Below, piece by piece: positions 4,832 through 54,705 of a stretch of DNA of 56,979 bases (the first letter of the stretch is position 1; the number at the start of each line of letters is the position of its first letter). A program made the position numbers and the translations under genes. Origin of the DNA: Armatimonadota bacterium (GTDB lineage: Bacteria > Armatimonadota > Armatimonadia > Armatimonadales > Armatimonadaceae). The stretch spans positions 1 through 56,979 of the forward strand of contig JAYUUO010000035.1 in NCBI GenBank assembly GCA_043754515.1, given 5' to 3'. The notes under the pieces are model-generated. The model was given only the letters and a program-made list of their open reading frames with translations, searched no databases and was not told where the DNA came from.

Positions 4832-5041
4832 CTAATGCAACGGTTTTCTTGGGGAGAAACAGGCGGCGACAAGCTGCACGAAACGCATCGTCCAGCAGAG
4901 TGGGCAACCCCGTAGGAGAATCAGCGCGCACAGAGCGAGTCCGGCTGAGAGCCACGGCTCGCTCTGTGCGCGTTGCGCGGCAATGAACAGCGTGACGCCG
5001 AACACGCCTTTTAGAAGATGAATCAATAGATCATTTCGCAT
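4832..5041 (-). CDS. small membrane protein with GCPxCW motif
   Basis: Two hydrophobic helices plus LRGCPLCWT; overlaps the sigma gene. Confidence 0.7.
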   Translation of the reverse strand: MRNDLLIHLLKGVFGVTLFIAAQRAQSEPWLSAGLALCALILLRGCPLCWTMRFVQLVAACFSPRKPLH

Positions 5042-5579
5042 CCGTCTTCCCCCCTGAGTCGGTTAAAAGGTACTCGCGCACCAGAACGCGGCCGCGATAT
5101 AGGCGTGTTTTCGCGGTCGCCAAGGGTAGCGTCAATCGCCGAGCAATTTGGCCCAAAGTCTCCTCCTCGAAGTCACGTAACAGCAGAACGTCGCGGTAGA
5201 TGACCGGGAGCGATTGTATTGCCAGGGCGATGTCGAGTCGTAACTCGGTTTCGGAGCGGGAAGCGAACAGATTCGGTACCGCTTCGAGAGCATTCGCGGT
5301 GAGCGAAGGCGAGCCGAAGCGGCGGGCGAGGCGGAGACATTCGCGCAGGACGACTGTCGCGAGCCAGCCGTCCAGCGACACGGCGGAGCGGAGCGTCGGA
5401 AGGTAGCGGCACAGGATTAAAAGAGTCTCCTGCACCGCGTCCTCGACCGCGCTCATGCCACACGTCCACTGTGCGTAGCGGCGGATGTTGGGGCGGAAGA
5501 TCGTCAGAAGCCGCTCCAACGCCCCCCGGTCGCCCTGCCGCGCCGCGACCCAATCCGCAGGGCAGGACGTCACGCTCAC
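5031..5579 (-). CDS. ECF RNA polymerase sigma factor
   Basis: AARQGDRGAL, VEDAVQETL, WLATV (region 2); LPVIYRDVLLLRD...TAKTRLYRGR (region 4). Confidence 0.9.
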   Translation of the reverse strand: MSVTSCPADWVAARQGDRGALERLLTIFRPNIRRYAQWTCGMSAVEDAVQETLLILCRYLPTLRSAVSLDGWLATVVLRECLRLARRFGSPSLTANALEAVPNLFASRSETELRLDIALAIQSLPVIYRDVLLLRDFEEETLGQIARRLTLPLATAKTRLYRGRVLVREYLLTDSGGKTDAK

Positions 5580-5800
5580 CGCGCGTCCGAACCGCTCTTC
5601 GCGGTGATCCTACGTCCGACCATCACGCACATCGGACAGAATCCGACGACCGCCGTAAGAAGGACGGCGACGCCCGATGCCGCAACGAGCCAACCAGTTG
5701 GAGTCGCCTTCAGCCCGATAATGCCGTAGAGGATAGCCATCGCCCCCGCCAAAACCCGCGCGATCCGCTCCTACAGCGGGAGGTTCTTTGTATATCACAT
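5576..5800 (-). pseudogene. DUF2892/YgaP-like membrane protein pseudogene
   Basis: M*YTKNLPL*ERIARVLAG...LTAVVGFCPMCVMVGRR; in-frame TGA (5795-97) and TAG (5771-73); GTGA overlap with the sigma start. Confidence 0.8.
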
Positions 5801-45002: not shown

Positions 45003-45965
45003 ATGTTGTCGTCACGAACCTTACTCGCCGCCTTCACTTTGTCCGCCGCACTCATCGCCGGATGCTCCCCCGCCGCCGGTGGTAGCGCGACGCCGCCTGT
45101 CGTGCCGGTAGTCGCGGCATCCGCGACTCCGACCATCTCCCCCTACGGGTTTGACGCTACCCGCTCCTTTAGCGATTTGAAGACGCAGGTGGATTTCGGC
45201 CCACGCTACTCCGGCTCGGACGGCTACCCGAAGATGCGCGACTGGCTACAGAAGTCACTCTCCGATGCATCGGGTATCCCGGCGAAGCGGCAAGATTTTT
45301 CCGCGAAGCCGGGCGCGAAGACGTTGCCGATGAGCAATATCTATGTGCAGTTCAATCCGGGCGCGAGGACGCAGGTACTGTTATGCGCCCACTGGGATAC
45401 GAGGCCGACCGCCGATCAGGAAGTCGACCCTGCTAAGAAGAAGATGCCGATCCCCGGAGCGGACGACGGTGCGAGCGGGGTCGCGGTACTTCTTGAAGTC
45501 GCGCGGGCGTTCAAGGCGAAAGCCCCGACCTGTGGCGTCCAAATAGTGTTCTTCGACGGCGAGGACTACGGACCGGGTGAGGCACAGATGTATCTGGGTG
45601 CCAAGGTATGGGCTAAATCCGCCCCGCTCCCGCAACCGACCTACGCGATTCTGATTGACATGATCGGCGACAAGAGCCTGCAAATCTACCGCGAGCAGGC
45701 GAGCGAATCGAAGGCACCGGAGATCAACGACAAGGTCTGGAACGCCGCCGCCGCGCTGAGGGTGTCCGGGTTCGAGAACACAGTGAAGTACGGAATATCG
45801 GACGATCACATCCCTCTCCAGGAGGCGGGTATAAAGGCGATTGATCTGATTGACTTCGACTACGGCTCCTGGCACACGCTCGACGATACACCGGACAAGT
45901 GCTCGCCCGACTCGCTCCGCGCGGTCGGCGACGTTTTGTCGAAGGTTGTTTACGACGAAAAGTAA
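45003..45965 (+). CDS. M28 peptidase / glutaminyl-cyclase-like lipoprotein
   Basis: LIAGC lipobox; AHWDTRP, GADDGASG, DGEDYG, SDDH, WHT. Confidence 0.9.
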   Translation: MLSSRTLLAAFTLSAALIAGCSPAAGGSATPPVVPVVAASATPTISPYGFDATRSFSDLKTQVDFGPRYSGSDGYPKMRDWLQKSLSDASGIPAKRQDFSAKPGAKTLPMSNIYVQFNPGARTQVLLCAHWDTRPTADQEVDPAKKKMPIPGADDGASGVAVLLEVARAFKAKAPTCGVQIVFFDGEDYGPGEAQMYLGAKVWAKSAPLPQPTYAILIDMIGDKSLQIYREQASESKAPEINDKVWNAAAALRVSGFENTVKYGISDDHIPLQEAGIKAIDLIDFDYGSWHTLDDTPDKCSPDSLRAVGDVLSKVVYDEK

Positions 45966-45984
45966 CGGGCGCAAAACGTTCGCG

Positions 45985-46021
45985 ACGCGCCCCAGCGGAT
46001 TCGCACCGGGGCGTGTTTTTT
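45985..46021 (+). terminator. intrinsic terminator
   Basis: ACGCGCCCC/GGGGCGTGT stem followed by a T-run. Confidence 0.7.
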
Positions 46022-46051
46022 CGTCCCCGCCTCCGCCCCGAAAACATTCCG

Positions 46052-46100
46052 AAAAAACTTTAACTTTTTCTTTAGCAAACGGGATGACCTGCGCTATACT
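46052..46100 (+). promoter_or_regulatory. sigma70-like promoter with UP element
   Basis: A/T tracts, then TTAGCA (46072-77)-N17-TATACT (46095-100). Confidence 0.65.
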
Positions 46101-46106
46101 GTGCTT

Positions 46107-47310
46107 GTAGGCGCGAATCACGTCCCGACCCGTCGGGACGTCTGCCAGGAAATTACTAACCTAGCGACCGGCAAATCTATTTCGTCGTGCCTCCGACGTT
46201 CGTACAGAAAGGAACATTCCATGTTTCACTTTTGGCAAAATAACACAACCCTGCCGCAAGAGAACCTCACGGAACCAGCCCTGTACGCCGTCGCCTTAAC
46301 GGAGGGGATTCGCGTCCTTTCCGATGGTATCTGCCCGCAAGGGCAATACCCCACCTCGCCACTCTCCACCTCGGAGTGTGCTGAAGCGAAACAGGGTTCC
46401 GGCATTGCCGGGACCACGGTCAGAAACCTGACCGGGATCATTACGAGCGTGCTATCGGGTAGTGGGGCATCAAGTAGTTTGATGCACCATCGCGCCAATA
46501 GCACGCGTGGCAACCCCGTTGGCAACAACGCCGGAGGGACCAGAAGCGTCGCTTATCTGCTTACAGGTAAGTCGCTTCTCGGTAACGATACAGGATTGAA
46601 CGAGAGCTCAATCTCCGGCAGCCGGCGAGAAGCCCGCGCAATGACAGCGACCGCGATTCGTAGCGCGTCGTTTGTAGCCGCGATAGGCACGTCGTATAAG
46701 AGCGACAGCCGCATATCACAAGGCTAGGAACACGCCGCGAGCGTGGAGCGCGAACGGTATGCCCTTGAAGAGGCCACCGTTCGGTCCGTTTCGCTAGCAA
46801 CACACAGCCGGAAAAGGTGCGAACTGAGTCGGCGCAGGACGGAAGGCGTCTGCGTTTCAGCAAGCGACACTTCCGCAATGTTCATCGGTGAATCCGGAGC
46901 CTATGGGCTTCCTCACCGTGACATCACATCATAACTGTGACCGATTATCATTTCGCGCCGGGAAAAGCAGTGCCGGTTTCTCCTCACCAGAGAGCCGCGC
47001 AGCCCTCCCCCGGACATAACGAGTAGAGCAGAAAACAAACCCATATCCGTTGGCGTACGTCCGCGTACCCGGTTCGTCAGGAAACTGAATCCTCCCCGCT
47101 TCGCAGGGGGCAGACTGTCTCCATGGCACTGGCACGAAATACATCGGTTCCCCCGTGTGTTTCGTCCGGTTCCGATGTTACCGGTTGCGCACTATATTAA
47201 CGGGCTGATCGTGACGAAAGTATAGGAGGCACTCTGCCTCCGATTCGCACGCGAAGCCTGAATCATGACGCACTTGGCTTGACCGTTTGTTTTTCTGCTC
47301 CCGATGATCA
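46107..47310 (+). ncRNA. candidate large structured ncRNA (~1.2 kb), family unrecognised
   Basis: Near-continuous stems, e.g. 46120-41, 46326-50 (GCAA loop), 46417-34, 46447-506, 46517-30 (GCAA loop), 46542-79, 46751-83, 46809-75, 46878-924, 47134-65, 47225-41; long-range helices 46270-84/46391-401 and 47026-40/47285-300; boundaries approximate. Confidence 0.7.
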
Positions 47311-47383
47311 TACAGAAAGTTCGGCCCTATGCCGGGGTTTGCCCCCGCCGCGCCGCCTTCCTGTAGAGAGTGGATGACGACTA

Positions 47384-47989
47384 ATGAACGCTATATTGAT
47401 TCGCGCGCGGCGCGGCGATGTCGCCGCGCAGGATGAGTTGAGGCGGGCACTGCGCCCGCGTTTAGAGTCGCTGGCCGGGTACTATGCTGCCCGCACCGGC
47501 ATGGATTCCGCCGACCTGTTGCAGGAGGCGTGGGTCGCCGTATTCGAAGCACTGCCGGGAATTGACCTGACCATTGGTACGCCGACGCAGTACCTGTTGA
47601 AGCATGCGCGGTGGCAGATATTGGACCACATTCGGTGGAACAAGCGGCGGTCGCACGAGACGCTCGATGATCTGGTGGTGGAGACGCCTGAGATCGCCGA
47701 GAACTCGTTCGGCACTGCCGTCAACCGCCCTGCGGCGTCGGAGGAGGTGGAGACCCGGATGATGATCAGCGACCTGGAGGGTCGGTTGAACGCGAAGCAG
47801 AAGGAGATCCTGCACGGGTTGCTGGACGGCTTCACCTGGAGGCAGATCGGTGACTCGCTGGGTTGCACGTCGGCGAACGTCGCGTACCACGTGCGCGGCA
47901 TCCGACAAGCCTACTCGGAACTGTCGGATGCGCCGGAAGGCGTTCCCGGCAGGACGGGGACCCGGCCCGCGCTGGCGGCACGGGCATGA
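47384..47989 (+). CDS. orphan ECF/SigH-like sigma factor
   Basis: RARRGD..A, DLLQEAWVAV, ILDHIR (region 2); LNAKQKEIL...G.TWRQI...LG (region 4). Confidence 0.9.
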   Translation: MNAILIRARRGDVAAQDELRRALRPRLESLAGYYAARTGMDSADLLQEAWVAVFEALPGIDLTIGTPTQYLLKHARWQILDHIRWNKRRSHETLDDLVVETPEIAENSFGTAVNRPAASEEVETRMMISDLEGRLNAKQKEILHGLLDGFTWRQIGDSLGCTSANVAYHVRGIRQAYSELSDAPEGVPGRTGTRPALAARA

Positions 47990-48026
47990 CGTGGGCTGTT
48001 CTCTCAAAAACGGTGACAGAGGTCAC

Positions 48027-48071
48027 AAACAAAACGCGCCAGGCGAATGATTCGCCCAGCGCGTTTTGTTT
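48027..48071 (+). terminator. intrinsic (possibly bidirectional) terminator
   Basis: AAACAAAACGCGC-ca-GGCGAA-tga-TTCGCC-ca-GCGCGTTTTGTTT. Confidence 0.8.
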
Positions 48072-48584
48072 CCCCGTCCTGCAAACCAGAGGGAAGCAGA
48101 TGCCGTAGTGCGGACGCAACCGCCCCCGTCTCTTTCCGAACAATGCCTTTACTAAAGTTATACTAACAGTCGGCGCGTTCCGTCCCGCGTCAAATACGAG
48201 AGGATGAGTCCGTAACTGCTCCCGATGAAAACAGTTTGCCCTGTCCCGTATGCCAATTCAAACAACTGTATTCGGAAAAGGTTCGCGAGATTTTAGCCCT
48301 TTTTCCGGGGTGGATTATTCCGACTCCACGCTTCTTTCCGCCGTTTGGTAGAAATGTCTGCCTCGTGCCGGTCGTGTCAACACATGCTTATCGGCTTCCA
48401 GCGAACGCCACGGATCCGGGTCGCGCGTCGGCGTCGGACTTGCCCCACGATGCGGTCACGGGACATCGCGTGGCACCCGTCCGTTCCGGGTATTCCTAGA
48501 TTCAGACAATCGGAACCTGACGATCATAGCCCATCTATTCCTGCCTGCCGCGCCACGATTATGTGCGTATGGCGTTGATCCGAC

Positions 48585-53057: not shown

Positions 53058-53169
53058 GTGTTCACGATAACACGCGGGATACCCCGCTCGCAACGGCGCG
53101 GACGGTTCGCCGCGCGGCGGGCGAAAAATAATCGAACAAACGCCCGCCGCCTGTACACTAACGGTGCGA

Positions 53170-53754
53170 ATGAACGAGATAATTAACGCTCTATGGGAGA
53201 CCACACTCCGGAAGCGGCTACGCGCGGGCGATCGCGCCGCGTTCGAGTTGGTGGCGAACGAGCGGTACGCCGCCGTCTACCGCCAGGTGTACCATTTGAC
53301 GGGCGGCGACGAGTCCCGAGCGGCGGATCTGACACAGGAGACATTCGTCGCGGCATGGCAATCACTCGAGACGTTCGACGGGCGATCCGCGATAGGCACC
53401 TGGCTCCATGTCATCGCGACACGGGTCTGGTACCGCTCCGTACGCGGGGAGAAACGCCAGGCCGGGCAGGTCTCCCTCGCCGACGCGCTCGGGGAGCTTC
53501 TCGCCGACACCGGCACGGTTGATCCGGCACGCCGCGTGACAGGCAATGCGGCGCGGGAAACGCTGGAAGCCGCCGTTCATGCCCTGCCGCCCGCGTACCG
53601 CCGCGCCGTTCTCCTGTTCTACCGCGAAGAGAAGCGTTATCACAAGATAGCGGACACGGAGAAAATCGCGCTCGGCACCGTGAAGTCGCGGCTCTCCACG
53701 GCGATCAGGATTTTGCGCGCGCGACTCGCGAACCGAAAGGAAGAACTGCTTTGA
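53170..53754 (+). CDS. ECF RNA polymerase sigma factor
   Basis: GDRAAF, DLTQETF, TWL..IA, LPPAYR, GTVKSRL. Confidence 0.93.
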   Translation: MNEIINALWETTLRKRLRAGDRAAFELVANERYAAVYRQVYHLTGGDESRAADLTQETFVAAWQSLETFDGRSAIGTWLHVIATRVWYRSVRGEKRQAGQVSLADALGELLADTGTVDPARRVTGNAARETLEAAVHALPPAYRRAVLLFYREEKRYHKIADTEKIALGTVKSRLSTAIRILRARLANRKEELL

Positions 53755-54705
53755 AACACACGACCGATGTCCCCGAAGGCTTGCTGGGGCGTTGCCTCGA
53801 CACGATCCCGGCGACCGCGACACGTAACCCTGTTACCCCCCGTCTGTTTCCCGACGCCGCGAGCCGGAAGCGCCTCGGCTGGCTATGCGTCGCGGCGGCG
53901 GCACCGGCTATAACCGTGCTCGCGGTGCTACCCATGAAGCACTGGATGGCGAGCCAGCTGTTTGAAATGTCACTCCCGCATCGAGAAGATACTCGAGTGC
54001 CGCGCCTTGTCCTGTATACCCGCATCGAAAGTTGGGGGCGCGTTGCTGGCAAGGGGAGAGTTAATCCGCCCACCTACTCCGTAGCCATCTATGACGCGAA
54101 AAAAAGGAAGAAGCGAATGGACCACGGATTCTTCCTATCGCACGATTGACGAGAATTATCCGTATGCGACGCTCCAAACGAAAACCGGTGGGTTCTGTTC
54201 GTCTTACTACAGATCGTACAAAAAATTTGTGATGAAGATTAATTTAGAGTAACGACGCAGGACGGACTAGACGGCTATTCGTGGGCATACACCCCGCGCG
54301 GCGGCATTGAGGGCTGGCTACGGCATTATCGGTCGCAGATCCGTGGTGGATGTAGCCGAGTGGAAGGGGGAGATAGTGACCCGACACACGTTCCGCTCGC
54401 GCACCAAAGAGGAACTAAGAAGGATCGAGCAGTCGCTCCGTGTCCTTGCCCTGCGGAAGAAACTCGGTACGTCCCAAACACAGTTGCCCGCTGAGTTGAA
54501 CGCACCCCCATGCCGCTGCGGGGTCTATACCGACCCTAGCACCGGTCGCGTCCTCGGCTCCCGCACATGGGCGTACTTCACCAAGTTCGCCGCCTCCGAC
54601 CCCGATGGCGTTCAAATGAACGAGTCGGCATATTACTATGATCCGCGACCGGATGACAGTCAGTTTTTCGATGTTGAACGTATACAGCGCGGTACCATTG
54701 TATAG
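53751..54705 (+). pseudogene. disrupted anti-sigma-like membrane protein
   Basis: Overlaps the sigma stop; TM helix; frameshift in A7 run (~54099-105), then in-frame TAA (54250-52) and TAG (54268-70) leading into the 54307-54705 frame. Confidence 0.55.

Follow-up and report, generated by a model that had tools for sequence, protein, structure and literature searches.

The window analyzed here is the whole 56,979-nucleotide contig JAYUUO010000035.1 (assembly GCA_043754515.1) from a bacterium of the family Armatimonadaceae in the phylum Armatimonadota, a placement in line with its named orthologs. Between hairpins at 45984-46021 and 48027-48071 it contains a unit composed of a promoter (46072-46100), a long structured RNA region, and a gene for a sigma70-family factor (Sigma70_r2, PF04542, E 2.8e-9). 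A preliminary description of this DNA had given the same order, from terminator to terminator, and it was recovered here. That description overlooked two things: a uORF (upstream open reading frame) inside the structured region, and a dedicated promoter motif that recurs before translation-stress genes. The uORF and the sigma gene are the only genes between the two terminators. The features of the unit are listed below, where z is the score from folding against shuffled sequences.

45984-46021, + strand: upstream hairpin with U-tract, resembling an intrinsic terminator (-22.6 kcal/mol, z -1.7)
46052-46070, + strand: A/T-rich tract 5' of the -35, similar to an UP element (putative role, from sequence)
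46071-46100, + strand: promoter TTTAGCA-N15-GCTATACT (motif match)
46107-46220, + strand: structured 5' untranslated region (UTR), z -2.5, with the putative transcription start placed from the -10
46208-46213, + strand: Shine-Dalgarno (SD) sequence of the uORF, AAAGGA
46221-46727, + strand: uORF of 168 codons, also strongly structured as RNA (frame conservation, z -6.6)
46359-46367, + strand: candidate anti-SD sequence CCACTCTCC in uORF codons 47-49 (predicted pairing with 47366-47373)
46728-47365, + strand: untranslated structured spacer (frame-breaking indels, folding)
approximately 46817-46958, + strand: near-invariant branched hairpin domain in the spacer (z -4.1 for 46817-46962, alignments)
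47366-47373, + strand: SD sequence of the sigma gene, GAGAGTGG
47384-47989, + strand: sigma70-family factor of 201 amino acids with regions 2 and 4 only
48027-48071, no strand assigned: strong, apparently bidirectional terminator hairpin (z -6.2, inverted repeat 91% complementary)

The upstream hairpin closes a peptidase M28 gene (45003-45965) and has comparable hairpins at the equivalent position in the related loci L003 and L004. The downstream neighbor is a convergent TMEM260-like gene. Neither a terminator nor a second promoter was found between the structured region and the sigma gene. By segment, z is -2.5 for the 5' UTR, -6.6 for 46221-46727, and -4.6 and -2.3 for two later halves, compared with -1.5 for the sigma coding sequence and +0.6 for the upstream gene, which served as controls. 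An Rfam search of the structured region, at gathering and E-value thresholds, returned no family at threshold and nothing credible. Relative to two sister genomes, a 54-nucleotide insertion is present at 47321-47375, just 5' of the sigma SD. A phage element was considered and set aside; a viral-contig search gave a single weak locus and thus no sign of one. In the RNA run X7, near-identical contigs cover 46155-46847, 46874-47043, and 47783-48161, and none covers the upstream gene. These contigs come from one study, are of low depth, and may include DNA, so they are not counted as evidence of transcription or attenuation.

The sigma protein is a member of the sigma70 family with regions 2 and 4. 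It contains a GerE-like helix-turn-helix in addition to Sigma70_r2, and it matches TIGR02937 with 49.3 bits (cut-off 42.9). The structure prediction has two well-predicted helical domains. The best Foldseek matches of the model are sigma factors, the top one being an RpsH model. The best solved-structure profile match is sigma-H (3mzy, E 1.1e-6), which is weak, with 15-26% identity to the SigH-like and structural matches, and no NCBIfam equivalog came near its cut-off. From these comparisons the protein appears to belong to an Armatimonadota clade that is weakly SigH-like, without assignment to a group of extracytoplasmic function (ECF) sigma factors. The clade is compact (53 clusters at E 1e-30 or better) and is present in 58 of 201 genomes of the phylum, with a close ortholog in 21 of 32 genomes of the family. 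The ratio of nonsynonymous to synonymous rates (dN/dS) within the genus is 0.04-0.05. The genome encodes 38 Sigma70_r2 proteins in total.

The preliminary description was right that this sigma comes without an anti-sigma gene. No anti-sigma gene is co-encoded at the locus, where the neighbors are the peptidase M28 and TMEM260-like genes. Across the ortholog loci no conserved downstream partner was found either, the largest cluster of downstream open reading frames (ORFs) having five members. The two other ECF genes of the window, at 5031-5579 (minus strand) and 53164-53754 (plus strand), overlap small hydrophobic-looking ORFs (4832-5041, 5576-5752, and 53751-54149), as had been described. The former has overlapping small hydrophobic ORFs on both sides, of 69 and 58 amino acids, and lies upstream of a 494-amino-acid ORF that resembles a cytochrome P450 by eye.

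Of the approximately 1280 nucleotides of the structured region, 507 (40%) form an ORF behind an SD sequence. The leader RNA sequence is found in three of 41 related genomes, all in one genus, at 73-74% identity, and AAAGGA-N7-ATG followed by an ORF of 160-168 codons is kept in all three. In this comparison all four indels in the uORF are multiples of three, and 20 of 24 spacer indels relative to L003 break the frame. The uORF has a dN/dS of 0.51-0.63 overall and 0.23-0.30 in codons 1-45. The remaining five frames over the uORF contain 2-9 stops in the three genomes, and 0.3% of shuffles yield an equally long open frame. Selection on the reading frame is apparent from these comparisons. Of 194 predicted pairs in the uORF, 18 have two-sided changes, a number reached by none of 500 shuffles, with the qualification that only three sequences were aligned and that the structure was derived from the same sequences. 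The indel and dN/dS pattern together with the two-sided changes indicates that the segment is under constraint for both frame and structure. The structured region is very probably a translated cis-leader of the sigma mRNA and not a non-coding partner RNA. The large structured RNA of the preliminary description is borne out in its excess folding (z -2.3 to -6.6); its non-coding character gives way to the frame-conserved ORF.

Three further observations concern the leader. In 17 of 22 family uORFs one of codons 5-8 encodes tryptophan, which accounts for 0.3% after codon 10; this is a possible arrest-peptide or tryptophan-sensing feature. The spacer domain at 46817-46958 includes a block of about 60 nucleotides that is nearly invariant in the three genomes, with flanks about 70% identical, and a similar outer stem and GCAAGCG-like apex is seen in L005, L007, L165, and L170. 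A search with nhmmer for a family-wide spacer RNA motif reached only L165 (E 1e-4). Pairing is also predicted between the mRNA 5' end (46111-46118) and the beginning of the sigma coding sequence (47399-47406), which would close the whole leader.

Across the phylum, 100 unique loci with an ortholog of the sigma gene were compared, and in 75 of them a promoter of the form TTTAGCR-N14-16 followed by a GC[G/T]ATA-like -10 lies upstream of it. The 75 include one spurious match (L165) and several near-duplicates. The 25 misses comprise 15 loci with less than 600 nucleotides of upstream DNA, seven with 700-1100 nucleotides, and three with the full 1500 nucleotides. As in the window, A/T-rich tracts precede the ortholog promoters. 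Leaders are 190-1276 nucleotides long with a median of 362 (74 counted), the longest being that of the window, and uORFs are 21-168 codons long with a median of 33 (71 counted, 4 doubtful ones dropped). The same order of promoter, SD, and uORF is kept even in leaders of 190 nucleotides, with no detectable sequence similarity between leaders and no homology of the uORF across the family. By these comparisons the architecture of promoter, SD, uORF, and leader is phylum-wide, and the RNA sequence is genus-specific. Sigma proteins 40-78% identical to that of the window lie behind unrelated or 190-nucleotide leaders.

In loci L186-L240, which belong to distant orthologs, the short uORFs close with an 'SPRSG'-like stretch. 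Its bases pair with the SD region of the uORF itself, and after it come a strong conserved terminator-like hairpin and then the sigma start. Several genomes of a second family, family-2 (L023-L027, L146, and L020), have a second copy of the promoter motif just 3' of the sigma gene. This copy faces a convergent conserved ORF of about 250 amino acids and may give an antisense or small-RNA output.

The fuller promoter motif (46071-46098) has one match in the window and none in 100 shuffles. The promoter of the window is a variant of a motif with a GCGATA -10 that recurs in the genome, and it fits a weak promoter of the housekeeping type as well, TTAGCA-17-TATACT. In the genome, TTTAGYR..GCGATA has 20 sites at spacer 15, six at spacer 14, and 0-2 at any other length between 5 and 39; spacer 16, taken as a negative control with the motif, has none. 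The pattern TTTAGCR-N15-GC(G/T)ATA has 26 sites compared with three for the reversed pattern. Judged from this motif, the sigma promoter is probably autoregulatory.

A weight-matrix scan gave 62 distinct sites scoring at least 19.5. Of these, 59 were fetched, and 61 hand-picked first or second ORFs behind them were scanned with Pfam. A match was obtained for 41 and none for 20. Eleven of the 41 belong to translation or RNA repair: HflX (the N-terminal part, at a contig end), MutS2, RsgA, TypA/BipA, MetRS, Thg1, YceD, an Rnl1-like ligase, a second RNA ligase, the N-terminal part of Pnkp, and RlaP. MutS2 is reported to split stalled ribosomes (PMC10897456). Among the other ORFs preceded by the motif are those for two GNATs, a Mef-like major facilitator superfamily (MFS) protein, two ATP-binding cassette (ABC) exporters, PrkA, YhbH, three AAA ATPases, ARPP, and DUF4291 proteins, and tRNA genes lie directly behind four of the 59 fetched sites. 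In the genomes G008 and G011 the motif lies before HflX, MutS2, an Rnl1-like ligase, Pnkp, TROVE proteins, GNATs, and RIO1. Ninety ORFs that follow sites in seven other genomes were compared; 28 have a homolog in the genome of the window, and 10 of the 24 non-sigma homologs carry the motif there too. These targets suggest a regulon for translation stress that is defined by the motif and includes genes for ribosome protection, tRNAs, GNATs, and efflux. The motif also precedes members of poorly known families, namely MXAN_6230/SCO0854 RING-type, DUF7873, and ARPP-1/2 proteins (L068:505-2595, L059:159-893, L076:219-2977, and L072:1754-3154), which could be new factors for RNA repair or ribosome stress.

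We propose, with a probability of roughly 0.58, that the unit encodes a sigma factor for translation stress that regulates its own promoter and is gated by ribosome-dependent attenuation, which would make it an analogue of WhiB7/WblC in function. A single mRNA would start near 46107, run through the translated uORF and 650 nucleotides of folded spacer, and end at 48071. Ribosomes at normal speed would clear the uORF, the CUCUCC segment would pair with the sigma SD 1 kb downstream, and no sigma would be made. Ribosome stalling would be the signal: ribosomes stalled or queued in the first 50 or so codons, on account of antibiotics, damaged or uncharged tRNA, or cold, would cover the CUCUCC segment and free the ribosome-binding site (RBS) of the sigma gene. 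The sigma would then direct RNA polymerase to TTTAGCR-N15-GCGATA promoters, its own included, and induce factors that split or assemble ribosomes, enzymes that repair RNA, tRNAs, acetyltransferases, and exporters. In this arrangement the leader would take the place of an anti-sigma factor.

The predicted switch rests on base pairing between the uORF and the sigma SD. CTCTCC, the complement of the sigma SD GGAGAG, is present in 16 of 22 family uORFs (the leaders left after dropping 6 doubtful or duplicate ones), with 1.7-1.9 expected, at codons 25-48 and in two reading frames. GGAGAG serves as the sigma SD in 15 of the 22 family orthologs and is found in 18 of 837 sampled SDs of the genome. The two track together, with 14 leaders holding both, two only CTCTCC, one only the GGAGAG SD, and five neither. 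In the folding model, 46359-46366 pairs with 47366-47373 with a probability of 0.98-1.0 in seven of eight boundary and temperature settings and 0.84 in the eighth; between SD and anti-SD the value is 0.98 for the window and 0.95 for L004. A ribosome-sized mask over the anti-SD is predicted to raise the unpaired probability of the SD from 0.01 to 0.30 in the window, and to 0.25 in L004. In distant orthologs the 3' part of the uORF pairs with the SD region of the uORF itself and not with that of the sigma gene, so the switch would differ between lineages. The chance that this pairing across 1 kb acts as a switch is put at about even.

The link between the sigma and the motif is drawn from their distribution. 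In the family, 203 exact sites are found in 21 sigma-bearing genomes, compared with seven in 10 genomes of genus g5, which lack the sigma. Across the phylum, at least four sites are present in 15 of 58 genomes with the sigma and in none of 143 without it, the means being 2.97 and 0.38 sites per genome. It is likely, judging from this co-occurrence, that the sigma reads TTTAGCR-N15-GCGATA.

Several points weigh against the proposal. On the folding side, masking opens the SD only partly (0.25-0.38), the SD:anti-SD helix forms in only seven of 16 folded leaders and not in the sister locus L003, and equilibrium folding of 1.3 kb is unreliable. A test of cognate against swapped duplexes gave p 0.11 when each genus contributed one leader and p 0.44 by Wilcoxon, neither of them significant, and covariation of the anti-SD and SD flanks across genera was not significant either. 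In the uORF, four of five strain variants change the residue, which indicates that the peptide is weakly constrained. On the motif side, related genomes are not independent, so the p-values are overstated, and most sigma-bearing genomes outside the family have 0-4 exact sites. At a score of at least 17 the matrix gives 74 hits compared with 12-24 for wrong spacers, so some lower-scoring sites are noise, and the matrix was built from the sites that it scores. In family-2, 24 sites in five genomes lead to no Pfam-named translation gene except the sigma itself, and the regulon there looks small. One genome of the same genus (G003) has 26 motif sites, yet no sigma was found there, and its M28 gene stands without the neighboring unit (L247:1660-3161). 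The G003 assembly is 82% complete in 760 contigs and the neighbors of the sigma differ between genera, which makes an assembly gap plausible, though not demonstrated. Finally, with 38 Sigma70_r2 proteins in the genome, another factor could read the motif.

An alternative is that the switch is transcriptional, with translation of the uORF controlling premature termination in the 650-nucleotide spacer, either through Rho or at a terminator of non-canonical type, in the manner of whiB7. Rho is encoded in the genome and could act on an untranslated message, and a U-rich tract conserved within the genus lies at about 47285-47296. Among 66 ortholog leaders (9 doubtful or duplicate ones dropped), terminator-like hairpins lie shortly 5' of the sigma start in 25, compared with one on the opposite strand. 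Base-shuffled segments, however, yield such hairpins in 12.5 of 66. Of 16 simulated leaders, four (L194/L202, L211, and L236, of which two are near-duplicates) respond to masking as a terminator/antiterminator would, whereas nine form the terminator regardless of masking and three are uninformative. The leaders of the window, L003, and L004 contain no intrinsic terminator, the C/G ratio of the spacer is only 1.1, and the U-rich tract is paired with 47027-47041 in the predicted fold. This alternative is rather unlikely as an account of its own. It is also compatible with the attenuation proposed above, since an occluded RBS could itself trigger Rho.

It is improbable that the motif is read by another regulator and that the sigma is only one downstream member of the stress regulon, like sigR within the WblC regulon, with other targets of its own. 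In its favor, besides G003 and the 38 sigma70 proteins, 36 of the 143 phylum genomes without the sigma hold 1-3 sites, and the -10 before the sigma in the family is GCTATA and not GCGATA. Against it, the motif is built like a sigma promoter, with two boxes at a fixed spacing, and it precedes this sigma across the phylum. It is also near background in genus g5, and its 0.38 sites per genome without the sigma are close to the reversed-pattern control.

A functional uORF peptide, for example a soluble anti-sigma of small size or an arrest peptide that responds to a single ligand, in place of a uORF that only provides a path for ribosomes, has a very low probability. The lower dN/dS of the first 45 codons and the position of tryptophan agree with it. 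The wide range of uORF lengths, the lack of family-wide homology, the absence of any match in a Pfam scan of the peptide, and the conservation of CTCTCC in two frames do not. An arrest-peptide role would fit inside ribosome-dependent attenuation, which leaves the anti-sigma role as the only true rival.

That the RNA, whole or processed, binds the sigma as an RNA anti-sigma, scaffold, or guide is the most unlikely reading, for although the extensive structure with two-sided changes, the near-invariant 46817-46958 domain with no assigned role, a leader far longer than attenuation needs, and the lack of a conserved protein partner point toward it, the RNA sequence is confined to one genus while the sigma orthologs lie behind other leaders, no terminator or second promoter separates the RNA from the gene, 40% of the RNA is under reading-frame selection, and apparent targets set by a fixed DNA motif need no guide. 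The preliminary description had offered these roles together with a giant regulatory 5' leader as ways in which the RNA could be the partner of the sigma. The leader role is the one retained; the others fit poorly with an RNA present in three of 41 genomes and a sigma ortholog present in 21 of 32.

WhiB7/WblC of Actinobacteria is the closest known system. It has a long 5' leader with a translation-sensing uORF, the counterpart of the leader and uORF here, and positive feedback on its own promoter (PMC10274678), which is probable here from the regulon motif in the sigma promoter. Its regulon includes hflX, tRNA synthetases, tRNAs, GNATs, and ABC and MFS transporters (PMC7157823). The whiB7 uORF of M. 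smegmatis encodes all amino acids but cysteine (PMC10274678), and that of the window encodes all 20. WhiB7/WblC differs in being a Wbl activator that works with the housekeeping sigma, whereas here a sigma70-family factor has its own -35/-10 motif. The leader in this genus is 1.28 kb long with no intrinsic terminator, control is predicted to act at translation initiation, and the predicted regulon is rich in RNA-repair genes. The unit is not a member of WhiB7/WblC: its regulator belongs to the sigma70 family and has a motif of its own, and its leader contains no terminator.

The predicted switch resembles ermC/ermB attenuation, in which stalling on a leader peptide is thought to open a structure that hides an RBS (PMC5118997). 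The predicted helix here spans 1 kb and would act on a global regulator instead of one resistance gene. Orphan ECF factors and the SigH-like border of groups 3 and 4 share the presence of regions 2 and 4 only and the absence of an anti-sigma neighbor, and differ in that the matches are weak, at 15-26% identity. The words 'leader' and 'Armatimonad' are absent from the main text of the ECF reclassification (PMC7826278), whose per-group supplements may bear on the assignment, and neither 'leader' nor 'translation' occurs in the covered part of a review of non-canonical ECFs (PMC8999054). The translational-stress response of Anabaena has similar output genes (hflX, hen1-pnkP, rtcB, and a tRNA operon); there a repressor is inferred for the tRNA operon, and the covered part of the paper has no uORF-gated sigma (PMC8421152).

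The unit is set apart from the large non-coding RNAs and the RNA-guided sigma systems by the absence of an Rfam match, by an RNA that is partly coding and genus-restricted, and by the absence of a Cas12f-like flanking gene. The former (OLE, GOLLD, ROOL, and 6S) are large folded RNAs like the region in the window, and the latter (dCas12f-sigmaE) have an RNA close to a sigma factor. The preliminary description knew of no system of this form. Searches of a literature collection without most subscription journals found no account of it either. The proposed logic matches that of whiB7/wblC. The unit is apparently an undescribed variant of ribosome-sensing leader control, on a sigma that probably governs translation rescue and RNA repair. 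What is new is the giant leader, the predicted long-range switch, and the putative regulon map.

A more far-reaching form of the proposal is tentative and on balance doubtful. In it, an undescribed Armatimonadota sigma clade would be a convergent equivalent of WhiB7 that drives a regulon for ribosome rescue and RNA repair. The leader of this genus would have grown to a 1.3-kb dual-coded RNA, in which a 1-kb helix keeps the sigma RBS locked until queued ribosomes open it. The 46817-46958 domain would be a second sensor (ligand, protein, or sigma-binding) that adds feedback.

The motif and its predicted regulon are the first found in our searches for an Armatimonadota sigma factor. The regulon also provides a guilt-by-association list of uncharacterized genes, including DUF4291, DUF7873, ARPP, PrkA/YhbH, AAA ATPases, RIO1, and R2K ligases, with possible roles in ribosome rescue or RNA repair. 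With its span of 1 kb, the predicted SD/anti-SD helix is unusual, and it is open to simple reporter testing. If the proposal is true, a sigma factor would be controlled by a ribosome-sensing leader in place of an anti-sigma factor, and a second phylum would have built a WhiB7-like intrinsic defense against translation stress from different parts.

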